In this document: positions 14,705-53,139 of the stretch, one piece after another
How the letters are laid out: every line of letters begins with the position of its first letter
Numbering within the stretch: the stretch's first letter is position 1
From: an uncultured Gemmatimonadaceae bacterium
GTDB taxonomy: Bacteria; Gemmatimonadota; Gemmatimonadetes; Gemmatimonadales; Gemmatimonadaceae
Reading direction: 5' to 3'
Assembly (NCBI GenBank): GCA_963740355.1
Contig: CAVUDW010000003.1
Location: 96,001-160,000, forward strand
DNA: 64,000 nucleotides
Translations under genes and position numbers: made by a program
Notes under the pieces: generated by a model
Databases searched by the model: none
What the model was told of the DNA's origin: nothing
The model's input: only the letters and a program-made list of their open reading frames with translations

Positions 14705-14874
14705 GGGCGGGGCACGAAGCAGTTGGCGACGGAACGTGACATCGTCGGAGATATAGCAGCCGGTGCTGTGGTGTGCGGACCGATTCGCTTGACTGTTGCC
14801 CGACCAGGTGCTGCTGAGCATGCCCGAACCGGTCGCGAGGGTTAACCTCGTCTCTGTCCGGCGCGCCGAACACC

Positions 14875-25337: not shown

Positions 25338-28001
25338 ATGATGGATAGCGAGCCGCGAGCCGAGATGGATGCCGAGCGTTGGTCGCTCGTGCAGCAGCTC
25401 TTCCATGACGCCAGCGAGCAGCCGTTGGCGGAGCGCGACGCGTTCCTGCAGACGGCCACCGCCGGCGACGCCGAGCTGGCGGCACAGGTGCTGGCGATGC
25501 TCCGGGCCGATGCAGACAGCGATTCGATGCTGGATCTCGGTCTCGCGCCAACGGCCCGGAGAATTCTCGAAACCGAACGTGGCGCGCTGCCACCGGAAAC
25601 GATGTTCGGCCCCTACCGGCTGGTGCGACAGATCGGCGAAGGCGGCATGGCGGTGGTCTATCTCGCCTCGCGCGAGGACCTCGGCAGCACCGCCGCCGTG
25701 AAGCTGCTGCATCATGCGTGGCTCTCTCCCGCGCGACGCGACCGATTTGCCAGCGAGCAGCGGACACTGGCACGACTGAACCATCCGGGCATCGCGCACC
25801 TCTACGACGCCGGTGCGCTGGGCGATGGCACGCCGTGGATTGCGATGGAGTACGTGGATGGCGAGACGTTGACCGCATACTGCCAGACACGCGCGTTGTC
25901 GATCGACGACCGGCTTCGGCTCTTCCGTGATGTCTGCGACGCGGTGCAGCACGCGCATGCACACCTCGTCATCCATCGTGACCTGAAGCCGTCGAACATC
26001 CTGGTGACACCGGAAGGACGAGTGAAGCTGCTCGACTTCGGCATCGCCAAGCAGCTCGAGGCAAGTGACGCCGACGCGTCACGGACGCGCACCGGCCTGC
26101 AATTGATGACGCCAGCCTACGCCGCCCCGGAGCAGGTGCGAGGTGAGCTGACGGGCGTGTACACCGACGTGTACGCGTTGGGCGTGGTGCTGTACGAACT
26201 CCTTGCCGGCAAGCTGCCGTTCGACCTCACAGGTCGCACTCCTGGCGAAGCGGAAGCGTTGATCCTTGGCACGCCGCCTGACCGGCCGTCCATCGCCGCG
26301 CGAGCCTCGACGGGTGGCAGCGATGCCGGCACCGCCGCGTGGGCGGATCTCGATGTGCTCTGCCTGACCGCCATGCACCATGAGCCAGCGCGGCGGTATC
26401 GCAGCGTGGATGCATTGGTGCGGGACGTCGATCATTACCTGCGCAAGGAACCACTCGAGGCGCGCCCGGACTCAGCTGGATATCGGCTGGGCAAGTTCGC
26501 ACGACGGCATCGCAGCACCGTTGCCGCAGGTGCGGTGGTGCTGGCCGTGGTGATCGGTCTCAGCACGCTGTACGCCATTCGCATCAGTGCAGCGCGCGAC
26601 ACGGCGGTCACCGAGGCGGATCGGGCGCAGCGCATCCAGCGATTCACGCTGAGCCTGTTCGAAGGCGGTGAGCAGAGCAGCGAGCCTGGTGACTCACTTC
26701 GCGCGGTGACGTTGGTGGAGCGCGGCGTCGTGGAGGCCGCGACCCTCGCAGCGGACCCAGTGGTGCAAGCAGAACTGTACCAGACGCTGGGCGGGATCTT
26801 CCAGAAGCTTGGTCGCCTCGATCGCGCCGATACGCTGCTGCAGCGCTCACTGGTGTCGCGGCGAATGCTGTCACCGAACCATCCGGATGTGGCGCGGTCG
26901 CTGGTGGCACTTGGCCTGCTGCGAGTGGAACAGGCGCGCCTGCCGGAAGGCGAACAATTGGTGCGTGAGGGACTGGCCCTCAGCAGAAGAGTACGCGAAC
27001 CGGGGCACCGTGATATCGCGGTCGCGACCAGTGCGCTTGGACGTGTGTTGGAGGAACGCGCGACTTACGCCGATGCGATCACCGTGATGCGCGAGGCATT
27101 GAAGCTCCACGCGGCCATCGCGCCAGTCTCGCCCGATGTTGCCGCGGCCGCGACGCAACTCGGCAACGACTATTTCTATGCCGGTGACTACGTCGGGGCC
27201 GACTCACTCTTCCGGCGCAGCCTGGCAGTGGCACGCGACCTCTACGGCGACCGGCATCCACTGGTCGCCGACGCCCTGGTGAACCTGGGCGCTGTTCGAT
27301 TCCAGCGGGGTGACTACGCCGAGGCGGAGCGATTGGACCGCGAAGGCCTCGAGATCATCCAACGGGTGTACGGGCCAGATCATCCGCGCACTGCGGCTGC
27401 CCTGACGATGCTCGGCCGCTCACTGGTGGCCGAGAGTCGGTTCAATGATGCCGTGCCGCTGGTGAAGCAGGCGCTCGCAATCCAGGAGCGGGTCTATGGC
27501 CCGGTCAGCCCGAAGGTCGCCTCGACCGTCAACGAACTCGGGATCATTGCGCTGCGCGAGAAAAAATACGACGACGCCGACGCCTACTTCGCGCGCAATG
27601 CCGACATCTATCGCTTGGTGTACAAGGAGCCACACAACCTGCTCGGCACGGCGCTCGCGAATCGTGGCAGCGTCTATTCCGCGCGCGGTGACAACGTGAT
27701 GGCGGAACGCTACTTCAGGCAGGCGTACGACGTGTTCGTGAAGACGGTCGGTGCCACCCACCTCGATGCCGGCATCGTGCAGGTAAAGCTGGGACGCGTG
27801 CTGCTGCGGCAGCAGCGGTTCGCCGACGGTGCACGGGAGAGCGGTGCCGGGCTCGCCATCCTGCTCGAGCGAACCAGCCCAACGACGAGCTGGGTGAAGA
27901 ATGCGCGCGGCGACCTGGCCCTCATGTACGACTCACTCGGCCAACCGGCCAAGGCCAACGCGATGCGTGCGGCGCTCGCCGACACACTGGCACGCAAGTG
28001 A
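25338..28001 (+). CDS. Membrane Ser/Thr kinase with extracytoplasmic TPR repeats; ECF partner
   Basis: GEGGMAVV, HRDLKPSN, DFG, TPAYAAPE, a TM helix and HP-punctuated TPRs; GGAG SD. Confidence 0.92.
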   Translation: MMDSEPRAEMDAERWSLVQQLFHDASEQPLAERDAFLQTATAGDAELAAQVLAMLRADADSDSMLDLGLAPTARRILETERGALPPETMFGPYRLVRQIGEGGMAVVYLASREDLGSTAAVKLLHHAWLSPARRDRFASEQRTLARLNHPGIAHLYDAGALGDGTPWIAMEYVDGETLTAYCQTRALSIDDRLRLFRDVCDAVQHAHAHLVIHRDLKPSNILVTPEGRVKLLDFGIAKQLEASDADASRTRTGLQLMTPAYAAPEQVRGELTGVYTDVYALGVVLYELLAGKLPFDLTGRTPGEAEALILGTPPDRPSIAARASTGGSDAGTAAWADLDVLCLTAMHHEPARRYRSVDALVRDVDHYLRKEPLEARPDSAGYRLGKFARRHRSTVAAGAVVLAVVIGLSTLYAIRISAARDTAVTEADRAQRIQRFTLSLFEGGEQSSEPGDSLRAVTLVERGVVEAATLAADPVVQAELYQTLGGIFQKLGRLDRADTLLQRSLVSRRMLSPNHPDVARSLVALGLLRVEQARLPEGEQLVREGLALSRRVREPGHRDIAVATSALGRVLEERATYADAITVMREALKLHAAIAPVSPDVAAAATQLGNDYFYAGDYVGADSLFRRSLAVARDLYGDRHPLVADALVNLGAVRFQRGDYAEAERLDREGLEIIQRVYGPDHPRTAAALTMLGRSLVAESRFNDAVPLVKQALAIQERVYGPVSPKVASTVNELGIIALREKKYDDADAYFARNADIYRLVYKEPHNLLGTALANRGSVYSARGDNVMAERYFRQAYDVFVKTVGATHLDAGIVQVKLGRVLLRQQRFADGARESGAGLAILLERTSPTTSWVKNARGDLALMYDSLGQPAKANAMRAALADTLARK

Positions 28002-28016
28002 CGCCCGATCGACGCG

Positions 28017-28451
28017 TCAGGGCCGGACGATGACAGCGATCACGATCACGAACAGCAGCAACGTCGGCACTTCATTGATGTAACGGCAGGCGGTCTCGCT
28101 GAACACGTAGTCGCCCGCGGCGAATCGCTTGCGCACCCAGGCGGCGAGACCGTGGTAGCCAAGCAGGAAGGCAACGGCCCCCAGCTTTGCGTGCATCCAG
28201 GGCATTTTCAGCAACGACGGATTCTGGTAGAGCATGCCCGCACCGAGTGCCAGTGCGACCACCATCGCGGGGGTCATGATCGCCCGCATCAGCCGTCGTT
28301 CCATGACCTCGAGCGTCGCCGTGACCGTTGGGTCCTCGCGATGCTGCACATGATAGACGTACAGCCGGAAGATGTAGAACAGACCGGCGTACCACGCGAT
28401 CACTGCGATCACATGCCAGGCCTTGAGCCAGAGATAACTGGAGCCCGTCAC
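28017..28451 (-). CDS. hemJ: Protoporphyrinogen IX oxidase HemJ
   Basis: WLKAWHVIAVIAWYAGLFYIFRLYVYH, MERRL...IMTPAM, WMHAKL and INEVPT; GTGA overlap with bchJ. Confidence 0.9.
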   Translation of the reverse strand: MTGSSYLWLKAWHVIAVIAWYAGLFYIFRLYVYHVQHREDPTVTATLEVMERRLMRAIMTPAMVVALALGAGMLYQNPSLLKMPWMHAKLGAVAFLLGYHGLAAWVRKRFAAGDYVFSETACRYINEVPTLLLFVIVIAVIVRP

Positions 28452-29062
28452 ACGTTGAGCAGCTGGAACCGGCAGGTGGCCCCACCCTGCGCGATACACT
28501 CGACTTCAACCACGCGAACATTCGCCGCGACCAGCTCGGCGATCAATCGCTCGAAGGTGCCCGCGTAGAAGTCGCACATCGGTTGCTCCTCACGCAGGTC
28601 GCGACACATGGCGCAGTGGTCGAAGACGAGTTCAGGTGCGGTACGACCAGCCACGACATGGAACTGCCCACTGCCCGCAAATGTCCAGGCATTCGCGGAC
28701 ATGGCCTTCAGCAGAATCTTCAACCCGATCCGTCGGGGCGCCAGCCGGATCAGCAGTTGCGCGAACTGCGGAATACGATTGGCCAGCAGGTAGGTCGCCG
28801 TTCGCTGGCCTGCCTCGCGAAGCACCGGCGTGGCATGACTGGCCCCGACACGGCGCACCAGCGCATGGACCATGGCCTGCGTCTCCCGCTCATCGACCAT
28901 CGCCGTTGGCATGTGGTCCAGCGTGTACGGCGTCGCGTCGCGCAGCACAGCCTCGGCAAACGCGGGACTGAGCCGATCACGCAGCACGCCGACCAGCTGA
29001 ATGATCGCGTTGGGCCCGATCCGAGGAATGTCGTGATCGTCAGGAACTGCCAGGCTGCTCAT
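28448..29062 (-). CDS. bchJ: BchJ (V4R-domain bacteriochlorophyll synthesis protein)
   Basis: RIGPNAIIQL, YLLANRIP, NAWTFAGSG, CDFYAGTFERL and C..C V4R motif. Confidence 0.9.
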   Translation of the reverse strand: MSSLAVPDDHDIPRIGPNAIIQLVGVLRDRLSPAFAEAVLRDATPYTLDHMPTAMVDERETQAMVHALVRRVGASHATPVLREAGQRTATYLLANRIPQFAQLLIRLAPRRIGLKILLKAMSANAWTFAGSGQFHVVAGRTAPELVFDHCAMCRDLREEQPMCDFYAGTFERLIAELVAANVRVVEVECIAQGGATCRFQLLNV

Positions 29063-29069
29063 ACCGACC

Positions 29070-30437
29070 TCATACCGCGCGTGAGAAGCGGCGAGGCGCG
29101 TCCGAGCCGAAGCGGTAGGCGTCCAGCGTTGCGCAGAGATTGCGCAGGAAGAAGCGTCCCAGTGGCGTGACCTGCACTCGGTCGGTGTCGAACTCCACCA
29201 GCCCATCTGCAGCGTATGCCTCGAAACGATCCACGAGTTCGTACATGTCGCCGAGGAACAGGTCGTATGGCAGCTCGGCGTTGCACATCAGGTGCGTGAT
29301 GGCAGCGGCGCGATCGTCATCGTCCGGCGAGCGAACATGTCCCTTGGCGATCGAGAGCACGCCGGTGTCCAGGTCCCGTTGCCAGCTCCCCAGCTCCGGC
29401 GTGTTCTGCACGTACCAGCCATTGACCTCGGAGATGGCGCTGGTGCCGATGCCAAGCAGGTTTTCGCCGACGCGAGTCGTGTACCCCATGAAGTTGCGGT
29501 GCAGACGACCGGCGTGTGCCGCCAGCGAGAGCGGATCGTCGGGCAACGCGAAGTGATCGATGCCGAGCCACTCGTACCCTGCATCGACGAAGGACTCCAC
29601 CGCGTCACGAAAGAGTTCGAATCGCTCCGTGTTCCGGGGCAACGTGGTCTCGTCGATGCGCTTCTGGTGCGCGCGCATCCATGGGACGTGTGCATATCCG
29701 AAACAGGCCACACGATCCGGCGAGAGCGCCAGCGACTCTTCAACCGTGCGGCCAAAGCTCTCCGACGTTTGCTCCGGGAGGCCGTAGATCAGGTCGAGGT
29801 TGATGCCGCTGAAGCCGACTTCACGCGCCTGCGTCACGACCTGTCGAACCATCCACTCCGGCTGCACGCGTCCGATCGCACGCTGCACCAATGGATCGAG
29901 GTCCTGCACCCCGAAGCTGATGCGTGTGAACCCCAACTGCCGCAACTGCTCCAGCTGCGACTGGGTGACCAGCCTCGGATCCGCTTCGACAGAGCATTCG
30001 GTGCGTGCATCGATCGGGAAGGCATTGCGCAGCATGGCGGACAGCCGCCGCAGTTGCGCATCGTCGAGAAAGTTGGGCGTTCCCCCTCCCCAATGCATCT
30101 CGGCCACGCGTGGCGCGGTACCTACCGCGTCGGCCAGGATCTCGATCTCCTTCTCCAGCCGGTCCAGATAGCGGTCGACGACGGCGGTGCGAGTGGTCAC
30201 TGTCGCATTGCAGCCGCAGTACAGGCAGCGCGACGCGCAGAACGGCAGGTGCACGTAGAGGGCCAGGGGCTCGGTGCTGCCATTGAGCGTGCCGAGTTGC
30301 TGCCGCCAGGCATCGCGCGTGAACGCGCCTGTCCAATCCGGTACTGCCGGGTAGCTGGTGTACCGCGGGACGGATACATCGTAGCGCGTCAGGAGCGATG
30401 GCTCGACTCGCGGTACCGTCAATCGACTCGTCGCCAA
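29070..30437 (-). CDS. hemN: Oxygen-independent coproporphyrinogen III oxidase HemN (radical SAM)
   Basis: PRYTSYP, YVHLPFCASRCLYCGC, HWGGGTP, DLIYGLP and RNFMGY; start uncertain (30422, 30437 or 30470). Confidence 0.92.
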   Translation of the reverse strand: MATSRLTVPRVEPSLLTRYDVSVPRYTSYPAVPDWTGAFTRDAWRQQLGTLNGSTEPLALYVHLPFCASRCLYCGCNATVTTRTAVVDRYLDRLEKEIEILADAVGTAPRVAEMHWGGGTPNFLDDAQLRRLSAMLRNAFPIDARTECSVEADPRLVTQSQLEQLRQLGFTRISFGVQDLDPLVQRAIGRVQPEWMVRQVVTQAREVGFSGINLDLIYGLPEQTSESFGRTVEESLALSPDRVACFGYAHVPWMRAHQKRIDETTLPRNTERFELFRDAVESFVDAGYEWLGIDHFALPDDPLSLAAHAGRLHRNFMGYTTRVGENLLGIGTSAISEVNGWYVQNTPELGSWQRDLDTGVLSIAKGHVRSPDDDDRAAAITHLMCNAELPYDLFLGDMYELVDRFEAYAADGLVEFDTDRVQVTPLGRFFLRNLCATLDAYRFGSDAPRRFSRAV

Positions 30438-30459
30438 CCGTGGCCTGTCGGAAGGAAGT

Positions 30460-32067
30460 TCAGCACGCACGGATACTCTCCTCGTGATGCTCCTGTGGAC
30501 GTGGCGTCGCATGTCCCAGCACCGGGACGGAACCCGAGAAATCCACGTCTGCCGCCAGCTCCGGACGTGCCTCGGCGATGGTGTGCAGCTGTTCCTTCGT
30601 GAAGACCTTCGACTCGTCGAACCCGAAGTCCACCTCGGCGCCGGTGGCCGTGAAGTTGATGCGGCCGAGGTCGTAGAACTTCTTGTTGAACGTCGTCTTG
30701 GCGAAGGCGCGGAGGCAGCCCATCAGGTACTTCCGCTTGAACGCATCCCGCTGGAAGGGATAGGAGAAGAACGTCTTCTTCATGTAGAACCGTGCATAGT
30801 TGCGCAGTACGCCCTTCAGGACCTGATCCCGCGTCATGTTGTCCGGCTGGATGATCGGCGTGACGAAGTTGTACTTCGCGTAATCACGCACTTCGACACG
30901 GTCGCCCAGCTCCTGGAAGAGCTCTGCGAAGGGCCACGGCGTGTACATGTTCCAGTTCGCCATGTCCGGCTTCCAGTCCTGCGAGTACTTGTACGTCTCC
31001 TCGATCGTCTCAGGGGTTTCGTTCTCCAGCCCAATGATGAACTGCGCCTCGGCGACCATGCCGGCGGCCTGGATCATCTTGATCGCCTTCTTGTTCTGTT
31101 CGCAGGTGGTCTGCTTTCGGAACCGGTCGAGCTTGAGCTGGGCGGCGGCCTCCGTCCCGAGCGAGATGTGCACCAGGCCCGCCTTGCGATAGAACGGCAG
31201 CTCGGCTTCATCGCGGAGGATGTCCGTGACGCGGGTATTGATGCCCCACTTCACGCCCAGGTCACGATCGATGAGCTCCTGGCAGAGCGCCATGAACTTT
31301 TTCTTGTTGATCGTCGGCTCCTCATCGGCGAGGATGAAGAAGCCCACGTTGAATTGCTTGACGAGGATTTCGATCTCGTCAACGAACTTCTTCGGGTCAC
31401 GCGTCCGGTACTTGCGCCAGAACTTCCACTGCGAGCAGAAGCGGCAGGTGAAGGGGCAGCCACGCGCAAAGTTCGGCACGGCCACACGGCAGTTGAGCGG
31501 GATGTAGATGTACTTGTCCCACTCCAGCAGCGACCAGTCGGGCGTCAGTGCATCGAGGTCGGCGATCGGTGGACGCGCCGTGGTCGCGACGACATTGCCA
31601 TTCTCGAGGAAGGCGATGCCGCGGATGTTGTGCTTGTTGGTCCGGTCGGTCCCATCGCGCATGGCAGATAGGAGCTCGACGGCGATCTCCTCCCCTTCTC
31701 CGCGAACGATGTACTCGATCCAGGGTGCCTCGCTGAAGACCTGCTGATACATGAACGTCGGGTGGATCCCACCGAGGACCGTCCGCACATCGGGATTCAC
31801 CTCACGGGCAATCTGCAGTGTTCGCTGCGCCTGATAGATCATCGGCGTGATTGCCGTGGCCAGCACCGCGTCCGGCTTCAACTCGATGAGTCGACGGCGA
31901 AGCGATTCGTCGTCGATGTGATTCGTCATCGCGTCGACGAACGTGATGTCCGTGAACCCGGCCGACTTGAGCGCGCCGCCGATGTACGCCACCCAGCCCG
32001 GCGGCCAGTTTCCGGCGATCTCTGCGCCGCCGGCGTGATAGTTGGGCTGGATGAAGACGAGACGCAT
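30460..32067 (-). CDS. bchE: Anaerobic Mg-protoporphyrin IX monomethyl ester cyclase BchE (B12-binding radical SAM)
   Basis: [46 protein letters not shown] and [15 protein letters not shown]. Confidence 0.95.
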
Positions 32068-32172
32068 GGAATCTCCTGGTGAGGGTGTGCTGGACTGACC
32101 AGTGCACATTGCCCTCACATGCCGCGCTCGACTATCGGGGAAAAACGCTCTCCGTTGTCAGGAATCGCAGGA

Positions 32173-32700
32173 CTAGCGGCGCGGCGTTTCTCGGTTCTCT
32201 TCCCGGCGGTCGCGATCGTCGCGCGGCCCCTCGGTGTGCGCGCGGCCACCCGTGCGCCAGTTCGAGACTGACGGCGCGTCCGCCTCGAGGGAGCGGAGGT
32301 AGCGCACCAGTCGGTCGATTTCCTGCGGCGTGAATGGTCCGCCGAGGTCGACGTGATAGGCGCTCATCATGGTGCCGGGGATTCCACCGGCCACCAGCCA
32401 GTAGAGCTGTTGATCGCTGGTGGTGTTGAGGAATTCGCGCGAGCCGAGTGTGGGTGCGACACCACCCCCGCTCGCATTGGGACCGTGACAGGCGGCACAG
32501 TGCCGGCTGAAGGCTTCGCTGCCAAGCGCGATGGATTCCTTTTCCGCCGACTCGCGCGCCGCCTGCCGCCGCGCGGGCTCACCGATGCGATAGAGCGGGA
32601 ATGCGACGATCAGGAGCGCCATGCAGCAGAGCCCGACGATGTAGTGGCGGTCGAGGCTCCGTTCCAGCGCTGGTGAGTCGAGTGGACGCGGCGTAGGCAT
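32173..32700 (-). CDS. Membrane-anchored monoheme c-type cytochrome
   Basis: N-terminal TM helix, CAACH and GIPGTMM distal Met. Confidence 0.85.
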   Translation of the reverse strand: MPTPRPLDSPALERSLDRHYIVGLCCMALLIVAFPLYRIGEPARRQAARESAEKESIALGSEAFSRHCAACHGPNASGGGVAPTLGSREFLNTTSDQQLYWLVAGGIPGTMMSAYHVDLGGPFTPQEIDRLVRYLRSLEADAPSVSNWRTGGRAHTEGPRDDRDRREENRETPRR

Positions 32701-32701
32701 G

Positions 32702-33202
32702 TCAGCCGACGACGTCGTTGCTGCAGACACCACCGCGGCCGGGCGTGTCGAAGCGGCGGGCACCGATGGCCGGCCCTTCCACTGGCTCAGCGAGGTTCAC
32801 CACCACCTTCCCGTTTTCGATGGTGATCGGATACCGATCCATGCCACGCGGTGCCGGACCAGAGATATGCTCGCCCGCCATGTTGTAGATCGACCCATGG
32901 CAGGGACACTCGAACCGGCCGCTCCCTTCACAGAACGGGACGCGACATCCGAGATGTGGACACTTCTGCGAAATGGCGAAGAGCTCACCCTTGGCGCGTG
33001 TGACGTAGAGGTGGCCCTCGCGCACGAAGGTCGCGCTGCCTTCCGGATAGGCGTCTTCCGGGCGCAGCAGCAGCTTGCCCGTGCCATCGAGGCTGGCGAG
33101 CGGCGCGAGGGCCTCGTAACTCGTCCATGCTGCGGCAGTGGCCAGAAGCCCGGTCCCCATCATCCAGGCACTCTTGAGGGTCTCGCGTCGCGTTGGACTC
33201 AT
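32702..33202 (-). CDS. Rieske 2Fe-2S subunit of a Rieske/cytochrome b complex
   Basis: Tat-like TRRETLK plus TM helix; CPHLGC and CPCHGS boxes; GPAPRGMDRY. Confidence 0.92.
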   Translation of the reverse strand: MSPTRRETLKSAWMMGTGLLATAAAWTSYEALAPLASLDGTGKLLLRPEDAYPEGSATFVREGHLYVTRAKGELFAISQKCPHLGCRVPFCEGSGRFECPCHGSIYNMAGEHISGPAPRGMDRYPITIENGKVVVNLAEPVEGPAIGARRFDTPGRGGVCSNDVVG

Positions 33203-33205
33203 CTG

Positions 33206-34480
33206 TTATGGCTCGAAGTAGAGGTGCTGCCACGGCAGGACGAACGCCCATCCTGGACCGCGGAACAACGCACCGATGATCGTGAGGACGACAGCCGTCA
33301 CGCCAACCACCATGAAGATCGAAATGGCTACACGGCGATCGCCGGGCAGGTACGCTGGATCGCGGTCGACGTAGGGCAGCGCCGCGAGCAGGAAAAGCAA
33401 TGCCGCCGGCGCCAGCACACCTGCCACCAGCGGATCGAAGTGCGCCAGTAATTCCTGGATGCCGACGAAGTACCACGGCGCCTTGGCTGGCTCAGGCGTC
33501 AGGTTTGCATTCGCGTGCTCCCGCAGCGGCGCATCGAAGAACACGCCCATCGCCAGCACAAGTGCGACCGTTGCCAGCGCGACCACCTGGTGCCGGATCA
33601 GCAGGTGTGGCCACGTGAACACCTCGTACTCCGGTGCGCGCGCGTGCGCCGCCATCGACGGTGATTCCACTTCACCAAGCAGCCGCACCCGTGGCGGCTC
33701 GACGGCCGACTGCTGGTCCGGGCTGGCCTCGGGCTCCGCATCGCCGACGATCCCGGACGGGGCAAAGCCATCCTTGCGCACACGCCAGATGTGCACCGAG
33801 AGCACCACCGAAAAGACTGCCGTCAGCACGGCGATGTGCAGCACGTAGAAGCGGAGCAGCGCCGACTGTCCGATGGTGGCACCGCCGAGGAGGACGTCGC
33901 GCATCCAGCCGCCGATCACTGGGACGTAGTGCACCAGGTCCGATCCGACGGTCACTGCCCAATAGGCGAGCTGGTCCCACGGCAGGAGGTAGCCGGTGAA
34001 CGAATAGACGAGTGTGATCACCAGCAGCGCGACACCGATGACCCAGTTGAACTCGCGTGGCTTCTTGTAGGCGCCGTCCCAGAAGACACGCGCCATGTGG
34101 AGCACGACCACCAGCACCATCAGGTGCGCGCTCCAGCGATGCACATTGCGAATCAGCTGTCCGAAGCCGACCATCGTCTTCAACCGCTGCATATCGCCGT
34201 AGGCCATCGTGACGGCCGGCGTATAGAAGAACATCAGGTAGGTGCCGGTCACCAACAACACGCCGAACAGCACCGTCGCGATGAACCCCAGCCGGTACGT
34301 ACTGCGGAGGGCGAGGATCCGAACCGGCACACGGACCGGATAGACATGCAGGAACACGTTGCCGAAGGCGCGCTGCGCGCGGCCGCGCGGCGAGTCGATT
34401 GGCGGAGTGCGCACCACGGAGCGATACAGCGCCGTGGCCTGCGCGCGTTCACGCCACGATAGGCGCGGAGTGTCAGACAC
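33206..34480 (-). CDS. Cytochrome b (b6-like N-terminal part fused to a subunit-IV-like part)
   Basis: HRWSAH...H, NWVIG, TGYLLPWDQLAYWA, LLRFYVLH...H and KAPWYF in place of PEWY. Confidence 0.9.
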   Translation of the reverse strand: MSDTPRLSWRERAQATALYRSVVRTPPIDSPRGRAQRAFGNVFLHVYPVRVPVRILALRSTYRLGFIATVLFGVLLVTGTYLMFFYTPAVTMAYGDMQRLKTMVGFGQLIRNVHRWSAHLMVLVVVLHMARVFWDGAYKKPREFNWVIGVALLVITLVYSFTGYLLPWDQLAYWAVTVGSDLVHYVPVIGGWMRDVLLGGATIGQSALLRFYVLHIAVLTAVFSVVLSVHIWRVRKDGFAPSGIVGDAEPEASPDQQSAVEPPRVRLLGEVESPSMAAHARAPEYEVFTWPHLLIRHQVVALATVALVLAMGVFFDAPLREHANANLTPEPAKAPWYFVGIQELLAHFDPLVAGVLAPAALLFLLAALPYVDRDPAYLPGDRRVAISIFMVVGVTAVVLTIIGALFRGPGWAFVLPWQHLYFEP

Positions 34481-36230
34481 GGATGAGGTCCAGTGCGTGC
34501 GGAGGGCACCGATCGACACAGAGACCACACCGGATGCAGGCAGTCTCGTCGAGGGTCAGGGCAAAACGTCCAGCGTCCGCGGCAGCGACGTTGCCGTCGG
34601 CAACCTCGGCAAGCGAGATGCATCCATACGGGCAGACATCGACGCAGAGCGCGCAGGCAATGCAGCGCGGCGCATCGAGCACGATGTGCGTATCGCAGAG
34701 GAGGCACCGCGACGCCTCGCGCCGTGCGTCCTTGAGGGTCAGGACTTCTTCCACTTCCGAGTCCTGCGCCCGAGCGACGACGGGCAGCACCGGCAACTCG
34801 CGACGCGAAATGATGTCGTAGCCACTGTAGTAGCGTCGTTCGAGCGCGAGCGGCGTGATCGAAACCTGGCCAGTGGCCGCGGCAATCGGTTCGCCCGGCG
34901 CAGGTAACCAGGGCCCGGCGCACGACAGCTCCTGGCGAATGGTGTGCGCCGCCCGCTTGCCCGAGGCGATCGCATCGATCAAGTCACCGGGGCCGCTGCT
35001 CAAATCGCCGGCGGCGAAGATTCGCGGATGCGAGGTGCGCCCATCACGGCCCGCCACGACACCACCCCACCCGCCGCCCGAGAGACCAAGCTCGGCACTG
35101 AGGAACGACACATCCGACTGCTGCCCAACGGCGAGGATGACCGTGCCGACCTCGAAGGTTTCATCTCGACCCTCCTGCAGCGTAGGGCGAAAGCGGCCCT
35201 GCTCGTCGTGCAGCGACGCCACCGGCGCCACGACGACCCGCAACCCGTCCCGCGCCGCTTCGATCCGCCGGACGCCACTCCCAGCGCGTACGACGACGCC
35301 TTCCAGCCGCGCCTCATGCAGCTCCTCGACGGGTACCGGCAGGGATTCGAGCGCCTCCGGCGCCACCAGTTGCACAGCAGCTCTGGCGAGCGGATTCGCC
35401 GACGCGTCACCGAACAGCACGGCCAGGCGCTGCGCCGATCGCGCGGCGTCGAACGCGACGCTTCCACCGCCCACGATCAACGCCGGCAGCACGATCGACG
35501 TCACTGTGTCTGCGTTGAACTCGCGCAGGAAATCCACCGCGCGAATGACACCGGGCAACTCGCCGCCAGGCACGGGCAACTGGCGTCCCCGCGCACATCC
35601 CACCGTGAGCAACACACGCTCGTGCGCCGCGAGCAGGTCATCGAAAGATTTGTCGACGCCGATCCGGCAGTGCGTCACCAACTCGATCCCGAGCGACAGC
35701 AGCGCGGCGATCTCCTGACGCACCAACGCGCGGGGTAACCGAAAAGCGGGGATTCCCGTCAGGAGCATGCCACCGGCCTCATCTCCACTTTCGTAGAGTG
35801 TCACCGCATGACCAGCCAGCCGCAGTTCCGACGCGGCGGCGAGGCCCGCCGGCCCAGCACCGACGATCCCGATCGAAGGACGCGACACCGGGGGAATCGG
35901 TCCATGCGCCAGATGCCATCGCGAGGCAGTACCAGCCTCGACGCCACCGTGCTCGCAAATCACACGTTTCAGCGCGCGAATGGCGATCGGCGCGTCGATC
36001 ACACCGCGACGGCACGCCTTTTCGCAGGGAGCCGAACACACATGTCCGCAGACGCTCGGAAATGGATTGTGCGCACGCGCCAGGTCATAGGCGTCCGTGA
36101 GGCGCCCGTCAGCCACCGCTTGCACGTATCCCGCTGCATCCGTCCCGACCGGGCACGCAACGCGACACGACACGTTGCCCGCGAACCATGCAGCATCCGG
36201 TACCTGCGCAGCCGTCGACAGGCGCATCAT
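34473..36230 (-). CDS. NAD(P)H-dependent flavin/Fe-S oxidoreductase (GltD/NfnB-like) with a C-terminal 2x[4Fe-4S] domain
   Basis: CRVACP...CGHVCSAPCEKAC, GAGPAG, GGGSVAFD, FAAGD, RCLLC, CIACALCVDVCP and CIRCGLCVDRCP. Confidence 0.88.
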   Translation of the reverse strand: MMRLSTAAQVPDAAWFAGNVSCRVACPVGTDAAGYVQAVADGRLTDAYDLARAHNPFPSVCGHVCSAPCEKACRRGVIDAPIAIRALKRVICEHGGVEAGTASRWHLAHGPIPPVSRPSIGIVGAGPAGLAAASELRLAGHAVTLYESGDEAGGMLLTGIPAFRLPRALVRQEIAALLSLGIELVTHCRIGVDKSFDDLLAAHERVLLTVGCARGRQLPVPGGELPGVIRAVDFLREFNADTVTSIVLPALIVGGGSVAFDAARSAQRLAVLFGDASANPLARAAVQLVAPEALESLPVPVEELHEARLEGVVVRAGSGVRRIEAARDGLRVVVAPVASLHDEQGRFRPTLQEGRDETFEVGTVILAVGQQSDVSFLSAELGLSGGGWGGVVAGRDGRTSHPRIFAAGDLSSGPGDLIDAIASGKRAAHTIRQELSCAGPWLPAPGEPIAAATGQVSITPLALERRYYSGYDIISRRELPVLPVVARAQDSEVEEVLTLKDARREASRCLLCDTHIVLDAPRCIACALCVDVCPYGCISLAEVADGNVAAADAGRFALTLDETACIRCGLCVDRCPPHALDLIRV

Positions 36231-36559
36231 CGATCGGGGCGCATCGCAGAGGGCGCCGGCGTCGCAGGGGCGCGACCGAGGCGCGACGCAACCGCCAGCA
36301 GCCCGATCGACATCACCGCAATCCAGCTGGTAGCGATTCCGACGCGCACTGATCGGCTGACGGCCGGAATACGGGTCAGAATCCAGTGCGGGACAAGCAG
36401 CAGGAGCAGTGTCAGCAGCAGGCCAACCGCCAGGCCGATCGCAATCGCCGTGATCCAGCGACGCTGAGGGACAGGCAATTCGATGTGCGCCGAATTCCCA
36501 CCGTTCCGGGCAGGCTCAGCCACACGTCTCGCGTCTTCTGACGTCACATGATCGCTCAT
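36227..36559 (-). CDS. Small two-TM membrane protein, first gene of the Rieske/cyt b operon
   Basis: Two hydrophobic helices; ATGA overlap with the oxidoreductase. Confidence 0.6.
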   Translation of the reverse strand: MSDHVTSEDARRVAEPARNGGNSAHIELPVPQRRWITAIAIGLAVGLLLTLLLLLVPHWILTRIPAVSRSVRVGIATSWIAVMSIGLLAVASRLGRAPATPAPSAMRPDR

Positions 36560-36655
36560 GTGACACAGGATGCACGTCCGTGTATCGAGCGTCCGTCAGG
36601 GATTACACGGAAAAGACGTCAGGCCTCGCCCGACAACAGGCGCGCTCAGCGGCAA

Positions 36656-37702
36656 CTACCGGACGGCAACTCCCTCAGAGGCCTGCTTTTCCCGACTCAG
36701 GTCGGTCCGCAACTGGTCGCGCAGGCCATTCACGGCGCGCCCGCGAATGTTGAGGATGCCTCCGCGCGGGAGATTGTCGAATCGGAATCGCCGCTCCACC
36801 ACCACGTACGTCGACCCGGACGCGCCATCGCCGTCGCGATCGATCACACTCATGACCTCGAGTGCGGCCTCGAAGTAGTGGTTCGCGTAGATCTGCTTCG
36901 ACGTGACCACGGTCGTGCCGCTGAGTTCAGGCGGCGTGTACACGACCGCATGTGTCACGCTGAGGATGGGCCGCAACCGGGCCACCGCGTCCTCCGACCA
37001 GTACAGCACGTCGGATACACCACCGGGTCGTCCCCGGGGGAAGGTCTTGAGATATGATGCGATCGCAGGCGCAGCCTGATTGAGAAAGCTCGACTGTGCC
37101 AGGACTGCGACGAAAGCATCGCTGGCCCGAATGCTGGGGCGATCGTCATAGATCGGCATGGATGCATTGCCGTGATCGCGGTACTCCTCGACATACGTCA
37201 CCAGTCGCTGGCGGGCGATCGCGGTGATCCGCGCCTGCAGATCGTTCGCTGACCAATCGACCTCATCTTGCAGCTTCTGCATCGCCGTCGCGGGCAACTT
37301 CGTTGTGCAGTCTCCGGGCCGACACTTCCGCAGGTCGTTGGCGTCCTGCTTCGTGACCACCACCCCGTCCACATCGCGCAGCACGGCGGGATCACTGAAG
37401 ATCCCGAATCGCGTGCGTGTTGGCGTCCGAAGCCAGCTGCGGAAGTCCTGCACGCGTCGCAGGAAGACGTCACGCGAGACGTTCATGCGCACGATGCCGA
37501 ACACCGCCACGTCGCGCTGGTCCTGCGTCGGAACGACGCGCACCAGGACCTCTCCACGCTCGACGGTGGTGGCTTCAGCTGAATCGAGTCGGATCCCATG
37601 GCGTTGCAACGCAGCGACGGCAGACGGGACCTGCGCCCGCAGCGGAACGACCAGCGCTACGCCCACACACCAGAACAGCCCCAAGCGTCGTGCGCGTTTC
37701 AT
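36656..37702 (-). CDS. Hypothetical exported protein
   Basis: Signal peptide MKRARRLGLFWCVGVALVVPLRAQ; long ORF with conserved-looking YWS and SKQIYANHYF segments. Confidence 0.7.
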   Translation of the reverse strand: MKRARRLGLFWCVGVALVVPLRAQVPSAVAALQRHGIRLDSAEATTVERGEVLVRVVPTQDQRDVAVFGIVRMNVSRDVFLRRVQDFRSWLRTPTRTRFGIFSDPAVLRDVDGVVVTKQDANDLRKCRPGDCTTKLPATAMQKLQDEVDWSANDLQARITAIARQRLVTYVEEYRDHGNASMPIYDDRPSIRASDAFVAVLAQSSFLNQAAPAIASYLKTFPRGRPGGVSDVLYWSEDAVARLRPILSVTHAVVYTPPELSGTTVVTSKQIYANHYFEAALEVMSVIDRDGDGASGSTYVVVERRFRFDNLPRGGILNIRGRAVNGLRDQLRTDLSREKQASEGVAVR

Positions 37703-37930
37703 CAATGTCATGAGCGAGGTAAGCACAAACCGTTGAAGTCGTCGAAGTGACCGCTTTCAGCACGTAGCAATCTGGGCAGGTGCGCAGCCGCGCGCCAATC
37801 CTGTTACGCGGCACCCTTCGTGCAAACACGACAATTGTGCGGTGGAGTTCGGTGCACTCGTCCCCATTCGGTATATAGCGGTGTACCACTCCGTGCAGCA
37901 CACGCGCCCGCGTGCTGCGCGACGCAGTCG

Positions 37931-38234: not shown

Positions 38235-41200
38235 ATGAGCACGCGAGCGGAGCGCTCCCGTGCCGAGGCGGCTGACGAACTCCTCACCGGACCAATCGTC
38301 GGTGAGCTGCTGGGTGCTGATCACCTGGCGGCGCGCGCTCGCGCGGTTGCGCGCGGGCAGCGTCTCGTCACGACCCAGACGCCGTTACGGCCCGCACGCC
38401 TGCTGGCGCGCCTGGCCGATACACGACGCATCCTGACCGATGCGCAGGCAAGGCTGATCAGCGCCGCCGCCGCCGGAGTGGATGCCGGGCCAGCCGCAGA
38501 ATGGCTGCTCGACAACTACTACGTGGTGCAGGAGCACCTCCAGGAAGTGCGCGCCAGCCTTCCCGGAGGCTACTACCGTGAATTGCCGGAGCTGGCCACA
38601 GGTCCGCTCACAGGCTATCCGCGCGTCTACGAAATGGCGATCTCGCTCATTTCGCACACGGAAGCACGCGTCGACCTCGAGAATGTCGACCTGTATGTCG
38701 AGTCGTTCCAGAGTGTGACACCGCTCTCGCTTGGTGAGCTCTGGGCGATGCCGGCGATGCTGCGCCTGGGCCTGATCGAAAGCGTGCGGCGGATGACGCT
38801 GCGAACGATGCAGCGGCTCGATGAAATCGGGCTCGCGACGCTCTGGTCGGACCGCATCCTGGACGCCAGTGCACGCGGGGGCACCCCGCTGCGTGAAGCG
38901 CTGCGCGAGTTCGCCGACGCCGAACATGAACTGACGCCGCACTTCGTCTCCCGCTTCCTGCAGCTGCTGCGCCAGACCGAGGGTGCATCACCGCCGCTGG
39001 CCTGGCTCGAGCACTGGATGCGGGACGCCGGTGTCAGTCCGGAGACCGCGGTCGCACAGTCGACCCATCGTGTGACGCTGACGCAGATCATGATGGCCAA
39101 CAGCATCACGAGCCTGCGGGACATCGGACGCCGGGACTGGCGGATCTTCGTCGAGAAGCAGAGCGTGATGGAGACGGTGCTGCAGACCGATCCGTCGGGC
39201 CACTATCCGGTGATGACGTTCGCGACACGCGATCGCTATCGGCATGTGGTCGAGCGGATCGCGAAGAAGACCGGGCACCGTGAGACCTCCGTGGCGCAGT
39301 GGGCGATCGATCTCGCCCGCAGCCCAGTGTCTGATGCGAACGCACCGCTGGCGGATGTCCGCACACATGTCGGCTATTTCCTGATCGATGCCGGCGTCAC
39401 GGAGCTCGAGCGCGTCGCCGGGTATACGCCAACGCTGGGCGAGCGCATCGAACGCGCCGTGCACACCTACCCGAACGTGGTCTTTCTGGGTGGGCTGGGC
39501 ACGCTGGTGCTGCTCGCCACATCGTTCGTCCTGCTGCTGGTCGAACCGGATGCGCGGGAATCGATCTGGCTGCTGTTGCTGCTGGCCTTCCTGCCGGCAC
39601 TCGACATCGCAGTCACGATCCTCAATCAGCTCGTGACGGCCTTGCTGCCGCCGGATACGCTGCCGCGCCTCGACCTGTATACCAACGGCGTGCCCGCCGC
39701 GTACCGCACCGCGGTGGTCATTCCGACGTTGTTCGGCAGTGTGGGTGACGTGCACGACGCACTCGAGACCCTCGAAGTCCAGTTCCTCGCCAATCGCGAG
39801 GCGCACCTGCACTTTGCAATCCTCAGCGATTTCACCGACGCGGTGACGGAGACGACGGCGGCAGACGATGCCATCCTCGACGCCGCCCTCACCGGGATCC
39901 AGGAGCTGAACGATCGCCATGTGCACGAGCGGCACGTCGATGATGGCATCGGCCCCTTCCATCTCCTGCATCGTCCCCGGAAGTGGAATGCCCACGAAGG
40001 GGTGTGGATGGGCTGGGAGCGGAAGCGCGGCAAGCTGTCCGACTTCAATCGACTGGTGCGCGGCGAGTCGCTGAGCGCCTTCACGGTGATCGCTGGTGAC
40101 ACGAACGCCCTGATGGGTGTGAAGTACGTCATCACGCTCGACTCTGACACGGTGTTGCCGCCGGATGCGGCACCGTCACTGGTCGGCGCGATGGCGCATC
40201 CACTCAACCGAGCCGTCTACGACGCAAAGCGTGGCATGGTGCGCGGGTACGGCATCCTGCAGCCACGCGTGAGTGTGTCGCTTCCCAGTGCGCACCGTTC
40301 ACGTTTTGCGGCCATCGCCTCGGGCCATCCGGGTGTGGACCCGTATTCGACGGCCGTTTCGGATGTCTACCAGGACTTGTACGGCGAGGGCACGTTCACC
40401 GGCAAGGGGATCTACGACGTCGATGCGTTTCAGGTGGCAACGCACGGCCGCTTCCCCGAGAACACGCTGCTGTCGCACGACCTGATCGAGGGGAACTACG
40501 CGCGCGCCGGGCTCGCGACCGACGTGATCGTCTATGACGACTATCCGACGACCTATGTCGCGGCGACGCGGCGCAAGCACCGATGGATTCGAGGAGACTG
40601 GCAGTTGCTGCCGTGGCTCAGTCGCACGGTGCCCGGCCCGGACGGACCGGAGCGCAACCGGCTCTCGCTGGTGTCGCAGTGGAAGATCGTCGACAACCTG
40701 CGCCGCAGCACGGTCGAAATTGCACAGCTGATCTTTCTGGTGGGTGGCTGGACCCTGTTGCCCGGCTCCGCACTGCGCTGGACGCTTCTGGGCCTGGGTG
40801 CCATCGTCGCACCGTGGGTCACGGCACTGATCATCGCCGTGCTCAGGCCACCGCTCGACAAGTCATGGCGCGCGTACTACGAGGCGGTGGCGCAAGACGC
40901 CGTGGTGAGCCTCGAGCAAGCGCTGATTGCGATCCTCACCCTCCCGCATCAGGCGCTGGTGTCGGCCGATGCAATCTTTCGCACGCTGTATCGCCTGCTG
41001 GTCTCGCATCGGAAGATGCTGGAGTGGCAGTCGGCATCGTTGGTCGAGAAGTCGCTGACCGACATCAGTGCCATCACCCACCGTGCGATGCGCGCGAGTG
41101 TGCTGCTTTCCGGTTTCGGCATGCTGATGGTCGCAGCCAATGCGATTCGGCGCCAGCAGCAGCTCGGCTTGCCGCTGAGTGGGCTGGAAATGACGGCGTT

Positions 41201-44200
41201 CGTGGTTGGTGTGCTGACGATCTGCTGGCTGGTGGCGCCGCGTGTGATGGTGGCATTGAGTCGTCCATCGAGTGCCGCACGCCGCGTCCTGAGCAGCGGT
41301 GCCCGTGACGCAGCGATGCGCTACGCAGCACTCCACTGGCAGTACTTCGACACGTTCGTGACCGCCGAGACACACTGGCTCGCTCCCGACAACTTCCAGG
41401 CCGACCCGGACCCTGTCGTCGCGATGCGGACGTCGCCGACGAACATCGGATTGCAGTTACTGGCCACGGTGTGCGCGTACGACCTTGCCTTGATCAGCGC
41501 GTTGGAGATGACGAGTCGCCTCGAGCGCACCTTCGCCACCATGGCGTCGTTGCGGCGGTACCGCGGGCACTTTTACAACTGGTACGACCTCACGGACCTG
41601 CATGTACTGGAGCCGCCCTACATCAGTACGGTCGACAGCGGGAACATGGCCGGGCACCTGGTCGCGTTGCGGCAGGCGTGCCTTGCCATCGCTGGCGCCG
41701 AAGATGCCGTCCGCGAACGGCTGCATGCGCTGGCGAATGCCGCATACCAGTATGTCGTCGAGATGGAGTTCGGGTTCCTCTACGAGCCTGGGCGCAAGCT
41801 GTTCACGATCGGGTATCACCCGGAGTCGTTCACGCCGGACGACTCGTACTACGACCTGCTGGCGTCGGAGGCTCGCCTCGCAAGCTTCATCGCCATCGCT
41901 CGCAACGACGTGCCGCTGGAGCACTGGTTCCGCCTCTCGCGCAGCCTGAGCCGAACGGCTGGGTCGACGGCGCTGGTGTCGTGGAGCGGGAGCATGTTCG
42001 AGTACCTGATGCCGGTCCTGGTGATGCGGTCCCTGCCCTACACGCTGCTGGCGCAGACGTACGACGGCGTGGTCGAGCGTCACATGGCGTATGCGCGCAC
42101 GCGCAACGTGCCGTGGGGCGTGAGCGAAAGTGCGTACAACTTCCGAGATCGTCACCAGACGTACCAGTACCGCGCCTTCGGCATTCCGGACCTCGCGCTG
42201 AAGCGTGGCCTGGGGCGTGACCTCGTGGTCGCTCCATACGCCACGGCACTCGCCGCACAGGTGGATCCGACGCGCGCGATGAACAACCTCCGCACGCTCG
42301 AGGCGATGGGTGCCCTCGGTGAATACGGATTCTGTGATGCGATCGACTACACACGTCCACCCCAGGGTGGCCGGGTGGCCTTCGTGCGAGCGTACTTCGC
42401 CCACCACGTCGGCATGTCCCTCGTCTCGCTCACGAATGTGCTGATGAAGGACACGTGGCAGGACCGATTCCACGCTGACCCGCTGGTAAAGTCCGTCGAG
42501 CTGCTGCTGCATGAGCGCGTGCCGCGGCGCCTCATCCTGCAGGAGGCGCAATCGGCCCAACCCGACGAGGCGCGCCCGTCGCCCGAGACCGATCGCCCGG
42601 TGGTGCGCGAAGTGAACACGATGGTGCCATCGGCGCCACGTATCGCACTCCTCGGTTCAGTGCCGTACACCGTGATGCTCAATCACAACGGCAGCGGATT
42701 CAGCCGTTACGAGAACATCGCCGTCACACGCTGGCGTGCCGACAGCACGCTCGACGACACCGGCCAGTTCTGCTACATCAACGACATCACCGCCGGCCGC
42801 ATCTGGTCGGCCGCGCATCAGCCGATTGGTGCGCCGGCCGACTCGAGCCGTGCGTGGCTCGCCTCCGATCGCGTCACGCTTCATCGCGTTGACGGTGACA
42901 TCGAGACGCGGACCGAGATCACCGTCGTTCCCGCCGACAGCGCCGAGGTGCGGCGCGTCACGCTCACGAACACCGGGAGTGAGCCGCACGAGATCGAGCT
43001 GACGAGCTACGGTGAGGTCGCGATGACGACGCAGGGTGCCGACCTCGCACATCCGGCGTTCTCCAACCTGTTCGTCGAGACGGAATGGCATGGCTGGTGC
43101 ACTGCCATCACCGCCACCCGGCGTCCACGGATGCCGGACGACCTGCAGCTCTGGTGTGTGCACGTGGTGGATTCTGGCCGCGAGCGAATCGGTGCGGTGA
43201 CCTGTGAGACGGATCGAGCCCGATTCATTGGGCGAGGCAATACGGTTCGCGATCCTTCCGCGATGACCACCGCCGGTGAGCTCTCTGGAACCACAGGCCC
43301 GGTGCTCGACCCGATCTTCGCCCTCCGAACACGCGTCAGCGTCGCACCGGGACAATCGGTGAGCGTGGCATTCACCACGCTCGTCGCCACCACCCGTCAG
43401 GCGGCCTTCGAGTTGGCGGGCCGCTATCACGATTCACACGCAGCGCAGCGCGCCCTCGATTTCGCCTGGACGGCGACACAGGTCGAGTTGCAGGCCCTCG
43501 GCATCACGCCATCCAACGGCGCCGTCTTCCAGGAGCTTGCCAGCCAGCTGTTGTTCCTCGGCGGATCGCTTGCGCCACCGCACGATGAACTGCGACGCAG
43601 CCGCGGGTCACAGCCCCTGCTCTGGGCGCACGGCATCTCCGGCGACAACGCGATCGTCCTCGCGACGATCGATTCCATCGATGGCTTGCCGACCTTGCGC
43701 GAACTCTTTGCCGCGCACCGCTACTGGCGGCGACGCGGGCTCACCGTCGACCTCGTCGTGGTCAACTGCCATCAGGCCGACTACCTCCAGGAATTGCGGG
43801 ACGGGATCACGGAAGCGATGGTCGCAGCCAATGATGCGTCCCTCATGGATCGGCCGGGTGGCGTGTTCATCCGCCGCCGCGAGCTGTTTCTGGCGGACGA
43901 CTTCCTGATGTTGTCCGCCACCTCCCGCGTCCATGTGACCTGCGACGGCCGGTCGTTGACGCGCGTTCTGGCAAGCGCCGATACCTTCGCCGCCGATGAA
44001 GCGACGGGGGCCCTGTCGACCGCTGTAGCCCGCGCCGCTGATCGCGTCACACCGGCGCAGGTCGTGGTCATCGATCGCAGCGGACCACTGGCCACACTCG
44101 TCTCCGCGCTTCGTCCGCTGGTGGCGCCGCTGATTCCACGTGCCCCACGCCAGCGGCATCGCGCCGCCACTGTCGTCAGCAATGACCCGCCGCTCCAATT

Positions 44201-53137: not shown

Positions 53138-53139
53138 CC

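Follow-up and report, generated by a model that had tools for sequence, protein, structure and literature searches.

A flavoprotein-bearing Rieske/cytochrome b operon beside bchE in a phototrophic Gemmatimonadaceae bacterium: probably two independent units rather than one conserved module

In a stretch of 64,000 nucleotides from an uncultured Gemmatimonadaceae bacterium (assembly GCA_963740355.1, contig CAVUDW010000003.1, positions 96,001 to 160,000; the whole stretch is herein referred to as the window), nine tightly packed minus-strand open reading frames (ORFs) at 28017-36559 place a Rieske/cytochrome b operon with an NAD(P)-binding flavoprotein directly before bchE and three further tetrapyrrole genes. 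This arrangement raises the question of whether the two halves work as one low-oxygen module, as a first-pass annotation of the sequence had proposed, or have come to lie next to each other without a joint function. No description of the pairing was found in the literature on phototrophic Gemmatimonas, Rieske complexes and bchE, in so far as those sources were available. The distribution and arrangement of the genes in related genomes suggest that the two halves adjoin each other only locally, and that they form neither a machinery dedicated to a joint task nor a conserved module. The best explanation, which we hold with somewhat better than even confidence, is that two mutually independent units stand side by side, namely the genome's sole Rieske/cytochrome b complex and a tetrapyrrole cluster, both of them patchy accessory traits in phototrophic Gemmatimonadaceae. 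The features, in gene order, are as follows.

36560-36655, minus strand: upstream region of the operon, with a hairpin, a dyad and a palindrome
36227-36559, minus strand: first operon gene, encoding a 110-amino-acid (aa) protein with two transmembrane (TM) segments that matches no Pfam or NCBIfam family
34473-36230, minus strand: flavoprotein, 585 aa, an NfnB/GltD-like FAD/Fe-S protein (Pfam Fer4_20, Pyr_redox_2 and Fer4_7)
33206-34528, minus strand: cytochrome b, 440 aa (PF00033 and PF00032), with six or more TM segments
32702-33202, minus strand: Rieske [2Fe-2S] protein, 166 aa (CPHLGC...CPCHGSIY, RR motif)
32173-32763, minus strand: cytochrome c, 196 aa (PF00034), with one CAACH and one TM anchor
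32068-32172, minus strand: intergenic gap of 105 bp, with AGGAGA and a CCTGACA-N-TTTCCC box
30460-32067 (ORF to 32118), minus strand: bchE (TIGR02026, 807 bits against a cut-off of 481)
29070-30512, minus strand: hemN (TIGR00538, 474 bits against a cut-off of 325)
28448-29206, minus strand: bchJ, V4R domain (TIGR02019, 175 bits against a cut-off of 74; residues 62-248 matched)
28017-28499, minus strand: hemJ, membrane protein with TM segments (TIGR00701, 152 bits against a cut-off of 138)

The nine contiguous genes are present where the first-pass annotation had placed them, and curated family models, Pfam domains and motifs bear out the names that it had given. Its description of them as mostly overlapping is right as to the tight packing, whereas the overlaps are partly an artefact of calling the longest ORF: homologue alignments start 15-35 residues into the hemN, bchJ, cytochrome c and cytochrome b ORFs, so that, counted from the true starts, neighboring genes would probably be separated by small gaps or share only a few bases. 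The alignments of hemN begin at residues 31-35, and its true start probably lies some 20-30 codons inside the 29070-30512 ORF; that of bchJ is probably near codon 55-61. The stop of the 110-aa gene overlaps the start of the flavoprotein gene. At the junction of the two halves, the bchE ATG at 32067 has AGGAGA 5 nt before it and agrees with the N-termini of seven orthologues, and this ribosome-binding site and agreement set the gap at 32068-32172, of about 105 bp as first described. The database gene call for the flavoprotein (P0001) is 431 aa, or 74% of the ORF, and leaves off the N-terminal Fe-S domain; since relatives of 560-660 aa span 95-100% of the 585-aa ORF, the deposited start is probably too far downstream.

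The tetrapyrrole half can be assigned from family models. The bchE product carries a B12-binding domain (PF02310) and a radical S-adenosylmethionine (SAM) domain (PF04055), scores above the TIGR02026 equivalog cut-off and is, judged by these matches, the O2-independent, B12/radical SAM Mg-protoporphyrin IX monomethyl ester cyclase. By the same kind of assignment hemN encodes the O2-independent, radical SAM coproporphyrinogen III oxidase and hemJ the protoporphyrinogen oxidase, a membrane protein. That all four genes are O2-independent, as had been supposed, is not supported: HemJ and BchJ are not established as such, and hemJ appears as the 'aerobic' form in Table 2 of Zeng et al. 2021 (PMC7844134). 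In the same study, bchE and hemN mark microaerophilic versus aerobic Gemmatimonas, and G. phototrophica has bchE, hemN and hemJ alongside acsF, as does the present genome; that text holds no mention of Rieske or cytochrome bc (PMC7844134). The G+C content is 0.62-0.63 across the bchE-hemJ part (28001-32000) and 0.65-0.68 in most of the window.

The host genome (5.45 Mb in five contigs, 94.5% complete) contains pufL and pufM, with acsF close to pufLM, and the prediction that the host is a phototroph is thus confirmed; the nearest related loci are annotated Gemmatimonas or Gemmatimonadales. The operon had been taken for a second, additional Rieske/b complex. This is not supported, as the genome has one PF00033 cytochrome b match, that in the window, and its other quinol:cytochrome c enzyme is an alternative complex III (ACIII; gene ActD present). 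The operon hence encodes the sole Rieske/b complex of the genome, beside ACIII.

Taken by itself, the operon is of a known, widespread kind and is conserved as a unit across phyla. An alignment of the flavoprotein with 19 relatives (alignment A1) retrieved 80 loci with flavoprotein relatives, whereas the flavoprotein sequence alone retrieved none, and adjacency was scored by tblastn with the window's proteins. Cytochrome b adjoins the flavoprotein in 74 of the 80, bearing out the expectation that the two go together, Rieske in 68 and cytochrome c in 48. At 1 locus the neighbor is a true bchE, with 63% identity. As annotated, the loci span Gemmatimonadota, Myxococcota, Actinomycetota (mostly Acidimicrobiia), Acidobacteriota, Bacteroidota/Ignavibacteriota, Verrucomicrobiota, Binatota and others. 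Neither pufLM (0/5) nor BchE above the cut-off (0/5) was found in the five sampled operon holders outside Gemmatimonadota.

These identities, gene orders and distributions are read directly from the genomes, and they bear on the module that the first-pass annotation had in mind, in which the complex feeds low-potential electrons (through the Fe-S chain or NAD(P)H) to BchE and HemN, takes the electrons of HemJ via the quinone pool, or both. We consider this very improbable. Among 401 sampled Gemmatimonadaceae, 63 have pufLM, 13 a flavoprotein orthologue and 27 BchE, and the operon is present in 13 of the 63 pufLM-bearing genomes and in 0 of the other 338. We therefore compared the two units within phototrophs, taking as a set of 71 the pufLM genomes of the family sample, the remaining members of the genus and three further holders: 12 have both units, 5 the operon only (two of them with BchE relics), 11 BchE only and 43 neither. 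BchE thus accompanies 12 of 17 operons, which favors the module, yet in 11 of the 23 phototrophs with BchE the operon is missing, some of these genomes being complete or nearly so; among the 11 are G225 (one contig, 99% complete), G306, G348, G349 and G373 (genomes are given by our own numbers, with G000 the present one). BchE clearly works without the operon in, for example, G225, and the operon family occurs mostly in organisms without pufLM or BchE, so that a conserved operon-bchE module is contradicted from both sides.

The raw association is positive and is not supported once relatedness is allowed for. On a tree of PufLM for the 71 phototrophs, the operon must have changed state at least 12 times and BchE at least 15 times; in eight independent pairs differing in the operon, BchE shows a parallel difference in about 2.9, the reverse in 0.3 and none in 4.8 (sign test, median p 0.25). 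PufLM, which may not track the species tree, replaced rpoB as the marker, rpoB having been retrieved in only 10 of 20 genomes of the genus. The idea that operon holders form one subclade of the genus was discarded, since this tree intersperses G000 and G009 among G007, G011 and G017 and puts G008 in another place.

Physical linkage follows the same pattern. The first-pass annotation had named missing linkage in related bchE-bearing genomes as grounds against its proposal, and a survey of the 12 genomes with both units leaves its strong reading largely without support: the units are firmly apart in five (G009, G193 at 2.38 Mb, G045, G155 and G201), and within 16 kb of each other in three, each in a different arrangement. 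The remaining four (G097, G351, G257 and G107) have the genes near contig ends and are counted neither as linked nor as apart. The present genome is the sole tandem case. In G309, bchJ-hemN-bchE lie divergent about 6 kb upstream of the operon with a P-type ATPase between, and in G196 bchE-hemN lie divergent about 15 kb upstream while bchJ and a hemN paralogue are convergent directly after cytochrome c. A related picture is offered by G306 (locus L129, G306:C75:30500-50400), in which a non-orthologous Rieske gene and a cytochrome b-c fusion gene (their products are 242 aa and 614 aa long, and a cytochrome b562-like gene adjoins them) are followed on one strand by an M28 peptidase gene and then bchE-hemN-bchJ-hemJ; this type of complex also occurs in G225, 111 kb from bchE. 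The arrangements in G309, G196 and G306 indicate that a loose neighborhood recurs, and the first two speak for the module. Pure chance as the source of the pairing was not accepted, given the three genomes with proximity and G306.

The genus itself (20 species, with pufLM in 18 of the other 19) shows how the locus may have come about. Close orthologues of the flavoprotein and cytochrome b are found only in G009 and G008, and a full BchE only in G009. G009 has all five genes of the operon in place, with SCO1 and PCuAC genes behind them, and its bchE is isolated on a different contig, where the neighboring genes encode a helicase, a TetR regulator, a sigma factor and a transporter; G008 keeps the operon, with bchE reduced to a mid-contig relic of about 67 codons. 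The genomes closest to the present one on the PufLM tree are G017 and G011. In both of them a Ser/Thr kinase gene and the conserved gene orf356 abut with about 53 bp between them, and in the present genome the nine genes sit exactly between that kinase (25338-28001) and orf356 (36656-37726). The nine genes are therefore one insertion/deletion block relative to the closest relatives, which can be counted in favor of the module; however, with the units physically linked here, a single deletion removes both, and co-absence in close relatives could result from that alone. In G016 (L149, G016:C1:362000-381900, 5744-6307) a lone bchJ with 60% identity follows orf356, and in G008 (L007, G008:C22, 3798-3999) the frameshifted bchE relic lies beside a Cys/Met PLP enzyme gene whose counterpart is 16 kb off in the window. 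From these remnants in genus mates, the tetrapyrrole cluster seems old at this locus and repeatedly eroded.

The operon appears to have a different past. The present copy is nearer to that of G193, which belongs to another genus, than to those of the genus mates G009 and G008: identity to G193 versus G009 is 62-65% versus 50-53% for the flavoprotein, 76% versus 65-66% for cytochrome b and 82% versus 60% for Rieske, and the fragments in G008 are 52-53% (flavoprotein) and 66% (cytochrome b) identical. In the cytochrome b tree, all six phototroph-borne copies form one group (support 100/97) next to versions from Acidimicrobiia, with an internal order at odds with the PufLM tree. We infer that the operon moved among phototrophic lineages and, in this genome, may have landed beside a resident bchE cluster.

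Whether the two units are transcribed together turns largely on the 105-bp gap. No convincing intrinsic terminator was found in it (terminator scan; gap fold z = -1.6), and a sigma-70 scan of the gap gave nothing useful. At 95 nt ahead of the bchE ATG it contains CCTGACA-N-TTTCCC, and of 15 bchE upstream regions 6 have a CCYGAC...TTCCC box between -89 and -116 (mean 0.075 in shuffles), including those of G349, whose genome lacks the operon, and of G097 and G351, in which bchE and the operon are on different contigs. The gap box probably belongs to the promoter region of bchE itself, which would have its own start and be transcribed separately. The tandem order, the narrow gap and the lack of a clear terminator are what the proposed module can call upon, together with the status of HemJ as a membrane enzyme with an unsettled electron acceptor; the conserved upstream box that bchE retains counts against it, as do the independent contrasts and the five unlinked genomes.

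Shared regulation alone is a second alternative, in which the units have separate roles, are co-induced at low oxygen by read-through or a common regulator, and stay close for the sake of co-expression. We regard it as unlikely, though not negligible. Upstream of the operon, a terminator-like hairpin (36635-36617) follows the preceding gene, and a dyad CCTGAC-N17-CCTGAC starts 64 nt before the operon ATG, with a like dyad at -63 in G193. The same half-site with the same 23-bp spacing (CCYGAC-N17-CCYGAY) stands at -64 for the operon and -95 for bchE in this genome, which fits a common regulator, as do the role of bchE and hemN as markers of microaerophilic Gemmatimonas (PMC7844134), the finding of the operon mostly together with BchE, and the FixH and DsbD-like genes after the operon in G309 and the SCO1 and PCuAC genes in G009. 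However, the dyad pattern was defined post hoc and has 146 matches genome-wide against about 93 expected, and it may be a common -35-like element; it is hence not counted as evidence for a shared regulator. An FNR-type box (TTGATN4ATCAA) is not in excess either, with 11 genome matches against 9.5 expected and none in the two intergenic regions, and linkage is absent in 5 of the 12 genomes. A further motif, TTCC[CT]-N16-18-TTCCC, was discarded as unspecific (31 genome matches against about 19 expected). Separately, a perfect palindrome, GTCACATG-N6-CATGTGAC, spans 36541-36566 across the start codon of the first operon gene into its coding part, and TGACGTCA lies just past it.

Several observations weigh against two independent units. 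Proximity of no more than 16 kb recurs in three genomes of two genera, if in differing arrangements; in G196 bchJ and a hemN paralogue directly follow cytochrome c; the G306 cluster amounts to more neighborhood than chance alone would give, were the genomes independent; 12 of the 17 operon-holding phototrophs have BchE and two more have BchE relics; a similar dyad, albeit of a post hoc pattern, precedes both units here; and with no terminator in the gap, read-through from cytochrome c into bchE is possible. Moreover, the direction of electron flow, the docking of the flavoprotein on cytochrome b and the kind of quinone are presumptive parts of this reading. We nevertheless favor the side-by-side reading, in which unit 1 (32173-36559) comprises the fused cytochrome b, Rieske, cytochrome c, a cytoplasmic NAD(P)/FAD subunit with four Fe-S clusters and a two-helix membrane protein, and unit 2 (28017-32067), bchE-hemN-bchJ-hemJ, would use its own ribosome-binding site and the promoter-like region in the gap.

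What unit 1 might do can be approached from its proteins. The flavoprotein consists of an N-terminal two-cluster domain, an NAD(P)-binding FAD part and a C-terminal 2x[4Fe-4S] ferredoxin domain; it scores 361 bits against NF009410, under that model's cut-off, and its nearest solved chains are NfnA 9n5u (E 3e-114), NfnB 5jca and 4ylf, and GltD 6s6s. Across alignment A1 the Cys and Gly motifs are invariant (four cluster motifs, plus the FAD and NAD(P) motifs). Cytochrome b is a b6-like four-helix part (PF00033, 150 bits) fused to a subunit-IV-like part (PF00032), with cytochrome b6 (E 1e-58) and subunit IV as its nearest solved chains; it also resembles the ExtP/ExtQ models, with scores under their cut-offs. 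Among 26 sequences, H61, H130, H135, H144, H231 and H246 are invariant, and H130, H144, H231 and H246 we take, by the match to b6, to be the canonical haem b ligands, giving the two bis-His haem b sites in a four-helix bundle that characterize bc/b6f complexes. The window's cytochrome b has no CxGG motif (C.GG, the haem c_n cysteine). The PEWY position reads APWY, and across the 26 sequences P351, W352 and Y353 are invariant and Glu is absent; variants of PEWY are known.

The Rieske protein has CPHLGC and CPCHGSIY boxes (Ser/Tyr type), a twin-arginine N-terminus and a PF00355 match at 48 bits, and scores best against b6f PetC models, under the cut-off; as an exported protein with CxHxGC and CxCH boxes it is of the kind expected in bc/b6f complexes, as is the membrane-anchored, monohaem cytochrome c, the presumed high-potential acceptor encoded in the operon. 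All 73 Rieske motifs read are of the SY (18) or SF (55) type, a count that includes two from the other-type complexes of G306 and G225. By its motif the present protein would be of the high-potential kind, the SY type having been assigned 300-350 mV (PMC3509893). The cytochrome c orthologue of G009 is a dihaem protein of 290 aa. Homologues of the 110-aa protein (41-47% identity) stand directly upstream of the flavoprotein only in G009, G008, G193, G309 and G196; directly upstream of this small membrane protein, G009 (L004, 10798-11439) and G008 (L006, 6184-6813) have a Tll0287-like (PF11845) gene, which is absent from the window.

The likeness to anammox complexes with an NAD(P) oxidoreductase, which the first-pass annotation had pointed out, agrees with the published descriptions (PMC12954380, PMC5600118). 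For the Kuenenia complexes, Hauser et al. 2025 (PMC12954380) propose quinol bifurcation in which a high-potential acceptor takes one electron and the other reaches FAD and NAD(P)+ after passing the b haems and four Fe-S clusters; the Rieske potentials were measured above +300 mV, and an extra haem b was modelled. The anammox operons (Kuste4569-4574 and Kustd1480-1485) likewise encode Rieske, b6-like cytochrome b with a subunit-IV part, a c-type cytochrome and, as described, a cytoplasmic protein that binds NAD(P), FAD and about four Fe-S clusters, in a menaquinone host, as presumably here. The Rieske Ser that is tied to high potential there is shared here, with Tyr in addition, and the additional invariant H61 lies in the N-terminal part of cytochrome b, the region to which the anammox models assign a new haem b ligand (His62), with which it may correspond. 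In contrast, the anammox complexes have hexa- or octahaem cytochromes c and an HAO-like subunit, whereas the present operon has a monohaem cytochrome c and no HAO-like subunit; their cytochrome b is split and the one here fused; the CxGG cysteine that would bind haem c_n is missing here; and the present operon includes a further 110-aa membrane protein, which turned up in the Gemmatimonadaceae versions alone, and has an aerobic or microaerophilic phototroph as host.

Other families share parts of this architecture. According to Dibrova et al. 2017 (PMC5600118), b6-like cytochromes b are accompanied by large, cysteine-rich oxidoreductases that bind NAD(P) in planctomycetes and in 'many other cases', the same proximity as in the present operon and in the subfamilies of Dibrova et al. 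2013 and 2017; their subfamily G, compared by description, consists of short cytochromes b with CxGG, whereas the cytochrome b here is fused and without the motif. The b6 and subunit-IV chains of cytochrome b6f and Firmicute-type bc complexes best match the window's cytochrome b, but there is no cytochrome f, no PetG/L/M/N and no haem c_n cysteine, the flavoprotein is extra, and APWY replaces PEWY. With the NfnB/GltD/SudA family the flavoprotein shares the Fer4_20 and Pyr_redox_2 architecture and the invariant cluster and dinucleotide motifs; it differs in its C-terminal 2x[4Fe-4S] domain, in having its gene beside those of membrane cytochromes and in lacking an NfnA-type or GltB partner in the operon.

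We hypothesize, by analogy with the anammox complexes, that the subunits of unit 1 associate and that the complex would oxidize menaquinol, a complete menaquinone pathway being described in Gemmatimonadota (PMC9426454). One electron would leave by way of Rieske and cytochrome c for a high-potential sink, be it the photo-oxidized reaction center or an oxidase; the second would cross the b haems, follow the Fe-S chain and end up on FAD and NAD(P)+. The opposite direction, in which the complex is an entry point for NAD(P)H and electrons run from FAD and the Fe-S clusters to the b haems and on to the quinone pool or cytochrome c, appears to us a possible though distinctly less likely course. It draws on the solved relatives NfnB, GltD and dihydropyrimidine dehydrogenase, which run NAD(P)H-to-Fe-S transfer, and on most holders being likely aerobic or facultative heterotrophs (Acidimicrobiia, Acidobacteriota and Bacteroidota, by taxon annotation only). 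Hauser et al. argue, however, that such a route would be wasteful of energy in organisms with proton-pumping NADH dehydrogenases and that a high-potential Rieske suits the reduction of NAD(P)+ (PMC12954380), and the Rieske here is of the Ser/Tyr type, in a family of SY or SF types only.

The rest of the window holds further genes of note. A BLUF blue-light sensor gene (47387-47854, minus strand) adjoins plus-strand genes for CheA, CheW, a PAS-rich MCP, CheY, CheB and CheR (region 47387-55441), and the set may form a light- or redox-tactic module. A 2788-aa ORF (38235-46601) with GT2, glucoamylase-like and GH94 domains is of the cyclic beta-1,2-glucan synthase type and lies, about 81-83% identical, beside orf356 in genus mates. 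A span of 16 kb contains three genes for large Ser/Thr protein kinases that carry TPR or PD40 repeats (12425-14884, 18663-21542 and 25338-28001), with synteny partly kept in genus mates.

For pigment biosynthesis the outcome is mostly negative: BchE and HemN do not need the complex, and the gene order is a local matter. For the bioenergetics of the host, the restriction of the operon to phototrophs within the sampled family gives reason to ask whether bifurcation of the anammox type has a light-driven form. In phototrophic Gemmatimonadaceae and one phototrophic Myxococcota metagenome-assembled genome, the photo-oxidized type-II reaction center, acting via cytochrome c, could be the sink that drives quinol bifurcation onto NAD(P)+, a speculative idea that we rate as improbable. 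If true, it would provide a light-driven, non-cyclic route to NAD(P)H, which purple-type phototrophs are not known to have, relying instead on reverse electron flow; it would explain why the operon is confined, within the family, to pufLM-bearing genomes, mostly low-oxygen-equipped, and it would supply reductant for BchE and HemN indirectly. Studies of Rieske/b complexes with a cytoplasmic NAD(P) oxidoreductase are known from anammox bacteria alone, and these are difficult to cultivate and manipulate. The same architecture occurs in many phyla, and its holders in the Gemmatimonadaceae are all phototrophs, some of them related to cultured strains, which would make them a more tractable setting.

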